NCBI RefSeq assembly: GCF_006345805.1
Contig: NC_043006.1
Location: 33,852,001-33,916,000, forward strand
Length of the DNA stretch: 64,000 bases
Origin: Octopus sinensis
Taxonomy: Eukaryota
Direction of reading: 5' to 3'
Position numbers and translations under genes: made by a program. The notes beneath the pieces were generated by a model. That model made no database searches. It was given only the letters and a program-made list of their open reading frames with translations, and had not been told where the DNA came from. This document shows positions 15,319 through 59,341 of this stretch, one piece after another (positions within the stretch are counted from its first letter, which is position 1; every line of letters starts with the position of its first letter).

Positions 15319-16451
15319 CGAGGGGCGTTCATTAAAGATTTCCCTGGAACCACTCCCCAAAGATTGGGATAAATGAAACTTGGCATAGTTATTAGTCCTT
15401 CTGTCCATGGCCACCACCAATGGTGACACACCTCTCCCATCGCTTTATGCAGCTGTGAAAACCTCGTCTGTGGAAGTCAATAAATTGTGTCTGGAGCCAA
15501 GATTTTACCTCAGAAATAAGTTCATCATCAGCTATAAAGTACTTCCTCTTCAAAAAAGACTTTATGGTTGGAAAGAGGTGGAAGTCAAACGGTAAGAGGT
15601 CACAAGAGTAAGGGATTTTATAGAGAGGAAAGATTTCATGGCCACAGGAGTGTGCTTTCATCTGGACAACATGTGCATTGTGAACCGGGGCATTGTTTAG
15701 GAGGAGGATAACTCCTTTGGTCAGCATGCCACGACTATCCGCTTTGATAGTGTCTCGCAATTTCTGCAGCAGAGAAGTATAATATGCCCCATTAACTGTG
15801 GGGCCCTTTGCCAGAAAATCCATCATCACTGCTCCATGCTGGTCTCAAAAGACTGTGAGCATCACCATGCCTGCTGAGGATTGGACACAAGCCTTCTTTC
15901 AAAGTGGTGAATTATCATGCTTCCATTGCTTTGACTGGACTTTAGTCTCAGAATCAAAGTGATGGACCTATGTTTCATCCTGTGAGATAAGTCTGCCAAA
16001 AAAGTCCTCCTTGTTTTCTTGGCACATTGCCAAAATAGCCTGGGGGCATCTGATTCGTTCCTGCTTCTGAAAAAGTGCAAGAATCTGGGGAATTCATCGT
16101 ACGGACAACTTCCATATGTGCAAATAGTCGTGAATGATTTTTCCATGGACCCTACACTTATCTTTACTTCTGGGCTAGTTACCAAATAGTTATGTGGTGA
16201 TCCTCTGAAATGGCAGCTTAAACTTCTTTCATCTCATCAAGTAAAAGAACCTGAACACTGATTTACATTCAACTGCTTCCATTATAACACCTTAGTCCAC
16301 TTCAGTAGCTGTAAAAGACAAATGAATACTAGTGGAAAGCTGTAACTCACAATGTGACATGTAGAGACATGTATGATTATGCTGGTACAAGTTCTGTTTC
16401 CTGCAATAACCGGAAGTAGGTCAGGGGAAAATCTTTTATGGACACACCTCG
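15319..16451 (-). mobile_element. Mariner (Tc1/mariner) transposon, near full length, transposase pseudogenised
   Basis: TIRs CGAGGGGCGTTCATTAAAGATTTCCCT and reverse-complement CGAGGTGTGTCCATAAAAGATTTTCCCCT with TA flank. Motifs QDET*VHHFDSETKVQSKQW, NNAPVH and YSCDLLPFDFHLF (ORF 15392-15829); stops and frameshifts present. Confidence 0.92.
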
Positions 16452-20869: not shown

Positions 20870-21385
20870 CCTAGGAGTAGACAAATGACTTCTGAGAACC
20901 ATAAAAGTGATGTACAGGCATGCTGTCAGCAGGGTCAGTAATGAGTTTAATGTGCAGGTAGGAGTTCACCAAGGTTTAGTTATCAGGGCCCTTCTATTCA
21001 TTGATGTCCTCTAGGCTAGAGGTTCTCAAACATTTTGGGCCACCACCCCTCTCATGGCCACATAATAGCCTCAGCACACCACCCCTATATTTATGTATAA
21101 ATATTTTATATTTTACTAATCTATATATACTATGAATTGTTTGATATTTGATATAATATATATAATTTGTATACAATACTATAATAATATTATAATAAAT
21201 TCATAGCCTCCCCTAATCCACTGCCTTCCTCCCAACGTCTCCTTTTTCTCTACCGCCTGCCTGGACCATTACAACACCCACAGTGGGGCATGGGACAGTA
21301 GCACCCTCTTTGAGAACCTATGATCTAGGCTATAATGGGAGTTTAAGACCAGTTGCCTATGGGGAATTCTTTGTGTTGATGAAGA
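20870..21385 (+). pseudogene. RTE reverse transcriptase fragment split by a hAT MITE
   Basis: LGVDK*LLRTIKVMY...EFNVQVGVHQGLVIRALLFIDVL, then after the MITE EFKTSCLWGILCVDE: RT QGSVLSP and YADD regions. Confidence 0.8.
21017..21322. mobile_element. hAT (Buster/Charlie-type) MITE
   Basis: TIRs TAGAGGTTCTCAAA and TTTGAGAACCTATG; 8-bp TSD CTCTAGGC/ATCTAGGC. Confidence 0.85.
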
Positions 21386-22496
21386 TGTTACCATGTAAGA
21401 ATTATTTTGCGTAATTGCTAGAAACACATGTGAAAAGATTCCAAAATATTAACTTTTGGTTTTATCTTTATTCTGACGTTATGCAACTTTTTTCTCTAAA
21501 AACTGAGATTGCCCTTGCTTTGATGATGTAACAGACTATAGGATACAAGATGCCTAGTTGAAAAATTCTGGTAAAGTGTTTTGCATCAAAGAATACCATT
21601 ATACAAACATGCATACATACATACATACATACATGCATACATACATACATACATACATACATACATACATACATACATACACACACACAAACAAAAATAC
21701 CCTGTTGTTGATGTTGAAATTCCAAAGAAGGAACCTTGGATCTAGATCAGAAACCAGTTCCTTTTCTATTGGCAAAAAATCTTGAAACAAACTGAATAAT
21801 GACATACATACATACATATAAGTCATAAAAAATATGTACTCGTATATTTGCCAATAGAGTGGGTAAGATTGGCTGTAATAGATACATAATTTCTGTACAT
21901 TTCAATTTATATATATATATATATATGATTTAAAAATTAATATATATAGAATTGATAATTAATATTTATGATGTATATTTATTTATATAGTGCCATCATC
22001 ATTATCATCATCTTCTCCTTGATGCCAACCCAAATTTAACCAAGACATTTGCTTTCTAAGTTCTGACTGCACAACTATAGTTTTTTTTTGAATCAAGGAG
22101 AAATTCTAAACGTTTTATTTCTGGAATTTCAACATACACACACACACACACAAATATATATATATATATATATATATACATACATACATACATACATACA
22201 TGTGAGGTGAGTGTGTGTGTATACACACACACAAGCACACACACAGATGCACGCATGCATGCGCACACATTTAGAGGGTTTGTGTGGGTGTGGCTGTGTG
22301 GTTAACAAGCTTGCTTCCCAAACATGTGGTCTTCGGTTCAGTTCAACTTCACAGCCCCTTGGACAAGAGTATTCCACTATGGTTCGGGTCCAAGCAAAGT
22401 CTTGTGAGTGGATTTGATAGACGGAAACTCACTGAAGTTGACTGTATATACATGTGTGTGTGTGTGTGCATACCCTTGTTTTGACATCATGTGATG

Positions 22497-22831
22497 CAGT
22501 TCTATATTTAAGAAATGAGGAATTATGTACATTATTTTACATTTGAGGGATATTTGTCCTCATCCTGTTTGTTGTTAACACAATGTTTCGGCTGATATAC
22601 CCTCCAGCCTTCATCAGGTGTCTTGGGGAAATTTTGAAACTGGATTTTCATTCCTAAGCTATTGAAAAATACATCGAAAAATACCTTAGGAATGAGAACC
22701 CAGGTTCGAAATTTCCCCAGGACACCTGATGAAGGCTGGAGGGTATATCAGCCGAAACGTTGTGTTAACAACAAACAAAAGATGAGGACAAATATCGTCA
22801 AATGTAAATAATGTTAATAATATAAATAATG
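22497..22831 (+). mobile_element. Fold-back Penelope-like insertion with two opposed hammerhead motifs and 11-bp TSD
   Basis: TSD ATCATGTGATG at 22486-22496 and 22832-22842; ~130-bp inverted arms ~22522-22658 and ~22685-22820; ~25-bp one-sided tail at the left. Confidence 0.88.
22721..22766 (+). ncRNA. Minimal type I hammerhead ribozyme motif, canonical core
   Basis: GACAC-CUGAUGA-A-GGCUG-GAGGGUAUAU-CAGCC-GAAA-C-GUU-GUGUU, with palindromic AACGUU stem III; predicted cleavage after 22761. Opposite-strand copy at 22577-22622 has a CpG-type change. Confidence 0.8.
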
Positions 22832-23189
22832 ATCATGTGATGGTTGTAAACAAGCCTCTCCGTCATACATGTGAGGTTGTCTATTTCCAGTCTTTTGTGA
22901 AAACCATATCTAGCCATAGTGAACTATTGCCTTGCTTCGATACAGATGAGGGTTGGTGACAGGAAAGGCATGCAGCTGTAGAAAGTCTGCCTCAACAAAT
23001 TCTGTTTGATCCATACAAGCACGGAAAAGTGGGTGTTGAATGATGTTGATGATGATGGGGATGGTGATGATGATATATACACATTTGTGTATGTATATTA
23101 TATATATGTTTGCATCTATACATATGAATGATAACTATAATCGTAATAAATCATAAAACTATATATATGCATGTGTATTTATGTGTATG

Positions 23190-23229
<40 letters not shown>

Positions 23230-23451
23230 GATCTGGATGTATGTTATATTTCACACAGGGCTCTACCAGTGCAGGAGTTTTCCCTTACCATCTGCTCACT
23301 GGCAACCATTCTCATATTGCCACCTTTTGTCAGGCTCTGATGAACACGGCTGATGCTAACAGGGAATGTCCATAATTTGTGAACCCACAACCTGACATGC
23401 TTTATTGATTGTGTATGTGGGTGTGTAAGCATGTGTATGTGTGTGAGTGTG

Positions 23452-23482
<31 letters not shown>

Positions 23483-23503
23483 CATATATATGTATGTATA
23501 TGA

Positions 23504-23552
<49 letters not shown>

Positions 23553-23870
23553 TACATATATATATATATATATATACACACACATATATATATATATATG
23601 TAGTAATATTATAATATATGATGCCCATATATATACACACACACACATATATATGTATGTATGTGTGTATGTATATATATATATATATAGATAGATATAT
23701 AGATATTCATATAAATATATATATATATATATAAAAATTATTTGAGACAAAACCACTATTTTGCAAAACAATAATATTTTATAATATTTTATAATATTTT
23801 ACTATAAAATTGGATTTAATCCTAAATCTGATTTTTTTTCCCTGTAAATTTGGATATATTCCCTAATATT

Positions 23871-23901
<31 letters not shown>

Positions 23902-24037
23902 ACATACACACGAGTATATATGTGTGTGTGTATATATATACATACACATGTATACATAAATACATTCATACATACACATATATTTATATAGACATATATA
24001 AATATATAGAGTATATATATATAATATATAATATATT

Positions 24038-24071
<34 letters not shown>

Positions 24072-24238
24072 TATAAGCTAATGCTAATGATGTATGTGTA
24101 GACAGGTGTGTATAATGTGACACACGTGTTTATGTGTAGGAGTATAAATATGTGAAAGCTAGTGTCTGTTTTCAGTCTGTGTCTGCTTTTGTGTGCACAT
24201 ATATATGCATACACACATACATACATACATACATACAT

Positions 24239-24277
<39 letters not shown>

Positions 24278-24288
24278 CGCGCGCAGAC

Positions 24289-24322
<34 letters not shown>

Positions 24323-24607
24323 GTATATATATACATACACACACACACACATGACTATATCTTTTAGTTAACCACCTCTGCACATCAGGTGTCTCTGTGT
24401 GTGTCTGTGTGTTTGTGTGTGTATGTGCAACCATGGAATGTGGTAGGATTGTTTAACAAAGTCACCTTGATAAGCTTCCTTCCAGTTCTCCTATTTTACT
24501 GCCACCACCACCACCACCACCACCACCACTGCTACTACTAAACTCAGCATCATCATCACCGTCTTCAGTAGCAGGAGCAACAGCATTATCAGCAGTGGCA
24601 TTATAAT

Positions 24608-57370: not shown

Positions 57371-58171
57371 TGTTTAAATTGGGTGGGGGTTGAAGAGGTG
57401 GATGTATGAGAATGGTGGATGCAGGGGGTGGGAATGATCAATGGTGCATGGATTGGGGAGGCAAATAGATGTGTGGGTGCCTGACAACAGGTGTTGGTTT
57501 GTTTATATCCCTGTAACTTGGGAGTTCAGCAAGAAAAAAAAAATAGAATAGGTATCAGACTTTAAAAATAAGTACCAAGGCTGTTTTGTTCCACTAAAAC
57601 TCGTCAAGGCAGTGCTCCAGCATGGCCACAGTCCAATGACCGAAACAAGTAAAAGATAAAAAATAAAAAAGATGAAATATTAATATTTCCATATTTCCAT
57701 CCTAGTGCAACCCATGCCAGCATGGAAAACAGATGTTTAATGATGATGATGATGATGATGATGATAATGTTTCATTAAGAACTAAGCAAAGACTCTCCAA
57801 CCATGACCACTCTGTCTTTCTTCTCACAGACATTGCATATCTAGGACTACAACATTTAATGTGCCTTTCTCCTTTCCAAGAGGGCTCGACTGTAATTTGT
57901 ATGAGATTTGGCTGTTGTTTCTAGCAGATCAAAAAGCCTTGGAGAAAGACTACTTCATCAAAAGTTCGTCCATCAGGTAATCTAAAGTGGATGGAGAGAA
58001 TCATTGTCCATCTATTGTTATTGATTTTATTAAGTAGGTTCTGTTTGAACTGACTGATCATCACGTATAATTGATCAGTCCTGTACAACTTGATAACCAG
58101 ATCCATTACACCAGATATGTATTAAATGCTTCAGTTGGGCTGAGGCCTCTGCTGCACAATATTGTCATTTT

Positions 58172-58270
58172 TTACATTATTTACATTTAATGGATATTTG
58201 TCCTGATCTTATTTGTTGTTAACACAAAGTTTTGGCCGATGTACTCTCCAGTCTTTATCAGGTGTCCTGG
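58172..58270 (-). mobile_element. Degenerate copy of the hammerhead-bearing arm of the 22497-22831 element
   Basis: Colinear with 22528-22627; ribozyme core decayed (CTGATAA...AAAA). Confidence 0.8.
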
Positions 58271-58605
58271 TGATTTTGTTATGTATGTGTCTGAATGTTT
58301 TTTTTATCATACCTAATGTGCCTATTAAGATAGGAATTGTTTCTGTTTTTAGGCTCCACATTCGAGTTACCTCTATTTCCAGATCTTTGTATTTTGCAAG
58401 TTGCTCCAATTCTTTTAGAGAAATGTTGTCATCTGTTGGTATTGATACATCGATTAGAAAGCATTTTTTTCCTTGTTGATCTCTGACAACTGTATCCAGC
58501 CTATTGGCCTTAATTTCTCTATCTGTGTGTTTTGGTATATTCCAGAGTTTGGTTGCTCTCTCAGTTTTTGTGACCTTTTCTGGGGTGTGCCTAACATCAT
58601 TTTTT
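58264..58605 (-). mobile_element. R4/Dong-type RLE LINE fragment
   Basis: HTPEKV...LWNIPKHTDREIKANRLDTVVRD...CFLIDVSIP...KYKDLEIEVTRMW...IPILIGTLG. Confidence 0.88.
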
Positions 58606-58607
58606 TC

Positions 58608-58655
<48 letters not shown>

Positions 58656-58659
58656 CATT

Positions 58660-59341
58660 ATTGCCTTTGCACAGCTTCTAACACTGGAGATGTACTATGG
58701 TGTTAGCTGTTCACTACCAGTGAACTAAGGTAACACCCCTTATTTTTCGAGCACTTTCTGGAGTATTCAAGTGGTTCCAAGCAGTGCTGTTTTCTGCAAG
58801 TGCTCCATCCTTATTGCAGCCCCTATTTGTTCCACGTACTTCTCAAAATTTTTACTCACTGTTCCCAAGGCTCCAGCAATTATTGGTACTACTACCACCT
58901 TATTCATCGACCACAACATCTTAACCTCCCAAGCTAACCTGTCATATCTCTCGACTTTTCTTTCTTCCTCATCGTATACCTTGTTGTTAGCTGGGCATGC
59001 TACATCTATAATCCAGCATAGTTTGTTTTCTTTCTCAATTAAGACTAAGTCCAGCTTTCTGTTCTCTATCTCATGGTCACACTGAATCATAAAATCCCAT
59101 AGGATCTTTGCATTTCTATTTTCGACGATGCCTTCGGGTTTGTGGTCATACAAATTTTGCAAAGTGTCCAGAGGACAAGCCTGGCTATATTGTTGTGGCA
59201 TCTCTTATATTCCTTCTGGGCTAGTGGTGTACATTGGCTGGTAATATGCCATATGGTTTCACCATTTTGTCCACAAATTCTGCACTTATCACTTTCTGCT
59301 GTGTTGTCTATTCTGTATTTTATGTAATTTGTTCTTAGCGC
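58660..59341 (-). mobile_element. R4/Dong-type RLE LINE 3' end, 5'-truncated, in (TAA)n
   Basis: KCRICGQNGETIWHITSQC (CCHC), ILWDFMIQCDHEIENRKLDLV...IDVACP...VVPIIAGALG; 3' UTR then (TAA)n. Confidence 0.9.

Follow-up and report, generated by a model that had tools for sequence, protein, structure and literature searches.

Penelope-like elements (PLEs) leave a characteristic footprint in host genomes, which the sections of PMC8557442 and PMC3846280 on insertion structure describe as an inverted 5'-truncated copy, a tail of 30–40 bp at one end and duplications of 8–10 bp. The origin of the inverted ends and of the one-sided tail is treated as an open question in the relevant parts of PMC8557442 and PMC11167929. 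According to the passages of PMC11167929 that deal with the Poseidon protein, this protein cuts and extends both strands, its two reverse transcription start sites bound the tail, and it is predicted to be a dimer. Palindromes at the 5' ends of pLTRs are known from the portion of PMC3846280 devoted to them, and for Schistosoma PLEs the hammerhead survey section of PMC4209133 had earlier recorded minimal hammerheads on opposite strands, separated by 100–700 bp. tRNA-derived promoters in retroelements have been described for non-coding SINEs and TRIMs. The autonomous partners of TRIMp3 elements are argued to need Pol II, at least in the part of PMC10886601 that discusses them.

Our computational analysis concerned an insert within a 64-kb stretch of Octopus sinensis DNA, referred to as the window, which the original prediction described as a palindromic insertion splitting a SINE and carrying a hammerhead on each strand, such that transcripts of either strand would form a hairpin that blocks cleavage and could be edited by ADAR. 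The hairpin insert as described is ordinary, having the known shape of a PLE insertion. What appears to be new, judging from sequence comparison, is a Penelope/Poseidon element whose pLTR begins with a tRNA-like segment.

The insert and its hammerhead motifs

The 335-bp insert (22497–22831) lies between two copies of an 11-mer (22486–22496 and 22832–22842) identified by a direct-repeat search. Of the 19 best-matching copies of the surrounding host repeat, 12 have a single 11-mer at the corresponding position (the query began with the 11-mer, and the 12 include six near-identical duplicates), so that it is a true target duplication of host sequence, which upholds the perfect 11-bp target-site duplication first proposed. 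The older host repeat, on the + strand, is split by the insert into a 5' part with a degenerate, SINE-like tRNA-like head (22280–22485, start approximate) and a 3' part (22843–23040, end approximate). The splitting of a repeat had been correctly recognized, but the identification of this repeat as a SINE is only plausible, based on A- and B-box-like motifs found by eye.

Comparison with other copies identified the left arm (22497–22663, - strand) as a 5'-truncated pLTR with a tail, 6.3% divergent from the family majority, and the right arm (22672–22815, + strand) as a 5'-truncated pLTR without a tail, 1.4% divergent. The PLE tail, a 3' extension of about 32 nt (22497–22528, - strand, inner boundary approximate), is confined to the left arm, which is longer at its terminus by about that many bases; hence the insert forms the long fold-back expected of a palindrome but is not symmetric. 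The inversion junction (22661–22684), as read from the sequence, contains an imperfect 12-nt tandem duplication (22661–22672 and 22673–22684). At the right end, an A/T-rich filler (22816–22831, + strand) looks like slipped repeats of the last 9-mer of the arm, from which it probably originated, and similar repeats were seen at the same end in other copies. From 22692 on, the right arm corresponds to N-terminal codons of the parent ORF, with a candidate start codon.

When the whole window was scanned on both strands, two minimal hammerhead motifs were identified, both inside the insert. The + strand motif (22721–22766), located within the N-terminal codons of the ORF, was found by motif scan and folding to combine the CUGAUGA/GAAA core with stems I and II of 5 bp each, stem III being replaced by a self-complementary ACGU, in agreement with the earlier description of core, stems and palindrome; its core boxes, stems and palindromic stem III are those expected of a minimal type I hammerhead, with a cut predicted between 22761 and 22762. 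The mirror motif found by the same scan (22577–22622, - strand) is present as claimed with core and stems intact, but its stem III 4-mer reads ACAU, in which two of four positions are able to self-pair, and is no longer palindromic. The Rfam search proposed as a check returned 116 matches over positions 21000–24500 at E values up to 5, none of them a hammerhead, and searches at gathering scores likewise gave no hammerhead.

The fold-back between the arms (22522–22821) comprises 132 predicted pairs with a longest unbroken helix of 72 bp, and the fold of the insert (-220 kcal/mol, z = -28) was equalled in stability by none of 100 shuffles. In the folding model, the stem I and II pairs of the isolated motif had probabilities of 0.80–1.00, versus 0.0 for all ten of these pairs in a transcript of the whole insert from either strand, which agrees with the earlier suggestion of a hairpin of about 130 bp that would block cleavage. 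On either strand the antisense arm would be transcribed first and would mask the motif according to the model, and the active hammerhead fold did not coincide with the predicted minimum-energy fold of either monomer or dimer.

That this locus is a working ribozyme/antisense switch, or an ADAR substrate kept by selection, would be compatible with the modeled 132-pair hairpin masking both motifs and with the intact right motif, but is very unlikely. The fold geometry is common to the whole family, being found in every two-armed copy, the junctions are copy-specific, and the left motif has decayed. Furthermore, no recognizable host gene was found by eye among the 74 frames of at least 110 aa in the window (short exons would escape), and the copies lack an editing footprint, with no A-to-G excess on the sense strand of 108 arms (15.7 per 1000 versus 15.1 for T-to-C). 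Since both motifs are masked in the fold because of the insertion geometry alone, the proposal of a locus-specific device is not sustained, and the hairpin is a by-product of the insertion mode of the family. Incidental editing of a transcribed copy is possible. The octopus is an animal with heavy A-to-I editing, in which such insertions seed many long perfect hairpins.

The repeat family and its mode of insertion

The insert as query yielded 4,428 first-look candidates in the octopus genome, and the arm peptide 34,786, neither of which is a copy number; all locus sets analyzed are best matches to a query and are biased toward similar, young copies. In 22 copies of similar length, the tailed end was fixed, the other end was about 30 nt shorter, and the center was variable. 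Among 69 loci, 42 were two-armed, with one tail in 40, none in two and two in none; the 40 include 22 of the 23 two-armed loci outside the set seeded by the insert of the window. Duplications of at least 10 nt, as measured by a finder that overestimates lengths, flanked 27 of the 42 two-armed loci versus 3 of 150 swapped-flank controls. In a separate tail-seeded set of 25 loci, an opposite arm was present in 15, the nearest opposite arm was tailed in none of these, and the duplication score was at least 10 in 13; no sequence common to the 25 loci was found past the tail. At locus L215, a further tailed arm lies about 800 nt away, which counts against the one-tail pattern. Outer ends come in two fixed kinds, both represented once in an insertion; the inverted arms copy the 3' end and vary at their inner ends, and some of them measure just 35–60 nt. 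A set of 108 arms differed by a mean of 5.5% from their majority, with CpG decay, and the intact core, stems and palindrome were retained in 17 of them.

The insert quite probably represents one insertion event, now dead, in which two 5'-truncated Penelope/Poseidon pLTRs were placed head-to-head as a result of nicking and priming on both strands. The single tail in nearly all two-armed insertions points to two separately primed cDNAs. The enzyme would nick both DNA strands about 11 bases, or one helical turn, apart, and each nick would prime one cDNA, the two starting at different internal sites, one at the tail end and the other about 30 nt further in, before stopping early and being joined at their 3' ends. 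Twin priming followed by such joining would account for the duplication, for the tail at one end and, as a by-product, for a hammerhead on either strand. The cDNAs of the window copy may both have stopped just before the (AAT)n tract that lies upstream of the arm in longer copies, with a 12-nt slip at the joint; alternatively, the center may have been lost later. The one-tail rule and the duplications of 10–15 bp lead to a sharp prediction, namely two primed strands with different start sites, which the published in vitro Poseidon system could test.

It could also be envisaged that one cDNA folds back and primes itself, the headless form in the window arising through a later deletion of the palindrome center. 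Long palindromes are unstable, as is generally known, which would favor such a deletion, and short fold-back palindromes are found in many head-seeded loci at the 5' end of the tRNA-like head described below. Self-priming was also proposed for rotifer PLEs in the section of PMC3846280 concerned with these elements. However, a fold-back would copy the 5' end first, while the inverted arms consist of 3'-end sequence, have two fixed outer ends and in some cases abut the head directly, and this origin is unlikely. An inverted repeat with a duplication might further suggest a DNA transposon (a MITE or fold-back element) having terminal inverted repeats and a 9–11-bp duplication, but the ends are unequal because of the one-sided tail, single-armed copies are common, and the arm comes from an RT-coding element, leaving this origin a practically negligible probability. 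Nor is the family mainly composed of the tandem hammerhead arrays typical of retrozymes, since most loci carry single or inverted arms, a short tandem being seen at L212.

No pile-up of 5' ends was found at the predicted ribozyme cut, where none of 216 arms began exactly; one each began 1 and 4 nt before it, and five started some 5 nt behind it, where there is a small palindrome; this lack of a pile-up agrees with the negative RNA-seq result given in the corresponding part of PMC11167929. The arms of L229, L250, L254 and L265 start about 4–5 nt behind the predicted cut at a short palindrome, and could represent either a favored joint or trimmed cleavage products.

Contigs of four sequencing runs covered the arm at the family level only, and in the two runs guessed to be RNA most of the unique flank was uncovered, which is uninformative on expression. 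Elsewhere in the window, a second, older single arm of the same Penelope family, truncated at the hammerhead, is located at 58167–58278 (- strand), adjoined by a broken ORF fragment (58279–58694, - strand) that, by eye, we take to resemble the endonuclease end of an R4/Dong-type retrotransposon. The arm peptide, when compared with longer proteins, had a single hit, in an isoform model of Octopus bimaculoides dystrobrevin beta (P0001), which is probably an element copy taken into a predicted exon.

The coding parent and its tRNA-like segment

The parent element was traced through shared flanks in the tail-seeded set, where shared coding sequence preceded the tRNA-like head in seven blast rows representing six places. 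In 30 endonuclease-seeded loci, the head came right after the ORF in 27 and the hammerhead body was present in 24, giving the order RT and endonuclease ORF, stop, about 30 nt, tRNA-like segment, (AAT)n tract, hammerhead and tail. RT, thumb and GIY-YIG-type endonuclease motifs are readable in the parent copies. The majority model of the parent is 2.97 kb long with a 721-codon open frame; every locus examined was broken and no intact copy was found among them, the longest stop-free frame among the copies being 551 aa. Similarly, 150 arm-peptide loci in the same genome contained no open frame longer than 199 aa. The parent ORF had 1,659 homologues at E ≤ 1e-20, and among the 120 listed most carried PF00078 and three carried PF01541, whereas a direct Pfam scan matched neither of two family peptides.

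In two of 30 RT-seeded loci, the pLTR body and tail are continued by the ORF, which is what pLTR-ORF tandems are expected to show. In addition, the arm peptide matched the N-terminus of an 847-aa protein (P0004) at 12 of 20 positions (E 1e-5, pairwise) over the hammerhead codons, and this protein is 56% identical to the 551-aa parent query. These tail-to-ORF tandems and the N-terminal match indicate that the arm is a pLTR with the hammerhead in the first codons of the ORF, and the contiguity of head, body and tail with the ORF places the tRNA-like segment at the beginning of the autonomous element's pLTR. The predicted relation to PLE minimal hammerheads was accordingly borne out, the arms being the pLTR of a Penelope/Poseidon-type element. 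The single ORF combining RT and GIY-YIG domains makes the parent an EN+ PLE, and its pLTR overlaps the ORF start with partial tandems. The inverted 5'-truncated copy and one-sided 30–40-nt tail were observed directly. The C-terminal endonuclease without an extra Zn-finger linker, a criterion taken from the classification part of PMC8557442 and judged by eye against the Cys-rich linkers of other families, would place the parent in the Penelope/Poseidon clade.

At the tail-to-ORF junction of L282 (about 660–760), a 23-nt unit spanning the tail end occurs three times, as if reverse transcription had restarted at the tail site. Other PLE families of the same genome, collected through Pfam GIY-YIG (50 and 30 loci), were considered as partners and rejected because they showed no similarity to the arm.

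Upstream of the arm, longer copies carry, besides the (AAT)n tract, a 75-nt tRNA-like segment with A and B boxes recognized by eye; the window's own copy is without this head. Compared with 27 distinct genomic tRNAs of six isotypes, the head gave best colinear alignments of 47–50 identities over 75–79 columns (z 6–7.5), and no single donor was picked out. ARAGORN called a tRNA in none of 14 loci, and Rfam made no tRNA call either. ARAGORN also found no tRNA in 50 of 80 metagenome PLE loci, which is uninformative since the program misses the head of the octopus family as well.

Among the 26 head-bearing arms of the tail-seeded set, 12 had 5' ends within -12 to +3 of the tRNA-like +1, and 5' ends fell at the head in 9 of 16 arms of the arm-seeded set and 31 of 39 of the head-seeded set, the latter being biased. 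A short palindrome is present at the 5' end of the head in many head-seeded loci, and fold-back there, or a halt of reverse transcription at it, could by itself cause the pile-up of 5' ends. The sense strand of the 2.97-kb majority model contains no T4 run, and the copies have 0.48 per kb versus 3.9 in metagenome relatives (37 of 80, chosen because their matches span about 1 kb or more; each had at least one such run) and 4.1 in a Neptune-type family. By synonymous-codon shuffles, this depletion is modest (P 0.046, about 0.04–0.05). A second PLE family of the same genome is equally poor in T runs (0.4 per kb), and no A/B-box pattern was found within 1.5 kb of its stop.

The RNA of the element probably begins at the tRNA-like segment, which may well serve as a Pol III promoter, so that reverse transcription from the first tail would give a large surplus of short SINE-like copies; a Pol III function of the A and B boxes is about as likely as not. 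A further-reaching scenario would also be consistent with these observations, in which an autonomous PLE captured a tRNA-derived promoter and is transcribed over its whole length by Pol III, oligo(T) terminators were lost from the 3-kb sense strand, and SINE-like solo repeats arise from the promoter by the tens of thousands, but it is doubtful. Alternatively, the short head-started copies could be a true SINE, with a separate RNA of head, hammerhead and tail that Pol III makes on solo copies and that the Poseidon protein mobilizes in trans, which is possible, if tentative. Such a SINE would have been born inside the pLTR of its own partner rather than being a foreign parasite. The head was present in 21 of the 25 tail-seeded loci, only 5 of the 26 head-bearing arms extend more than 30 nt into the parent, and the A and B boxes have been kept at the stated similarity to genomic tRNAs. 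On the other hand, head, body and tail are identical in sequence to the autonomous pLTR, so that initiation at internal positions close to the 5' end of the complete mRNA accounts for the short copies and no second RNA is needed. The tRNA-related head with A and B boxes resembles that of a tRNA-derived SINE, but it is not a 5' end separate from the autonomous partner, since 27 of 30 loci have it inside the coding element, though many short copies start there. An earlier candidate, a foreign SINE borrowing PLE enzymes, was dropped when the head proved to be part of the pLTR of the autonomous element itself.

A search of published papers revealed neither a tRNA-like segment in a PLE pLTR nor a PLE-dependent SINE, and the repeat library behind PMC13282606, as outlined in that source, may already contain the octopus family. 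If true, a protein-coding PLE whose pLTR opens in this way would form an exception to the Pol II argument as it is put in PMC10886601, and a route to the birth of SINEs.

Several other elements were noted. The Neptune-type PLE family (L143:1221–3563, L141, L142, L146 and many further hits) is young, with intact 781-codon frames and copies about 99% identical, and a scan of its fetched flanks found no canonical hammerhead. The abundant PLE family of L179–L208 has a C-terminal GIY-YIG domain, 0.4 T runs per kb and no obvious tRNA-like segment after the stop. At L144:4990–5060 (+ strand) there is a hammerhead-like motif of another kind, its stem III a palindrome of six bases; it is situated upstream of a PLE frame of 775 codons, on the opposite strand. 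At L095, tRNA-Cys genes and variants are clustered within 3 kb. Broken mariner-like frames at 15392–16233 of the window (- strand) are what we take to be a mariner-type transposase.

Comparison with known systems

The octopus element shares with the Anolis Poseidon PAc (PMC11167929) and with Pen2a_Av (PMC3846280), so far as the descriptions in the sections on these elements go, a single ORF with RT and, at its C-terminus, a GIY-YIG-type endonuclease, a pLTR that holds the first codons with a hammerhead overlapping the ORF start, and insertions with an inverted 5'-truncated copy, a 30–40-nt tail at one end and a duplication of about 10 bp. It differs in that its pLTR opens with a tRNA-like A/B-box segment and (AAT)n, which are absent from those descriptions of PAc and Pen2a_Av, and in that solo head-to-head pLTR pairs dominate the octopus family.

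With the metazoan PLE minimal hammerheads, as presented in the relevant sections of PMC4209133, the octopus motif has in common a short stem I, an unpaired base before stem II, a palindromic 15.2–16.2 and dual motifs on opposite strands at the spacing reported there. Its stem II is 5 bp long, compared with 7–8 in that account, and its predicted cut is after U.

The TRIMp3 elements Cassandra, Helenus and Ajax also carry small-RNA-derived Pol III boxes in a terminal repeat, but they are, according to the portion of PMC10886601 describing them, non-autonomous LTR elements, whereas the octopus segment sits in a protein-coding PLE. The schistosome Sm-alpha and Sj-alpha repeats likewise combine a tRNA-related Pol III promoter with a hammerhead; in the corresponding parts of PMC2770079 and PMC6765202 they are non-coding and often tandem, with cleavage freeing monomers, while the octopus unit is the end of a coding element whose 5' ends are not gathered at the cut site. 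Finally, the animal non-LTR retrozymes, as characterized in the pertinent sections of bioRxiv 10.64898/2026.07.22.740005 and PMC7229834, are hammerhead repeats that are non-coding, related to pLTRs and presumed to rely on PLE enzymes, a description they share with the octopus repeats, but they form tandem arrays, whereas the octopus family consists mostly of dispersed single arms or inverted pairs.
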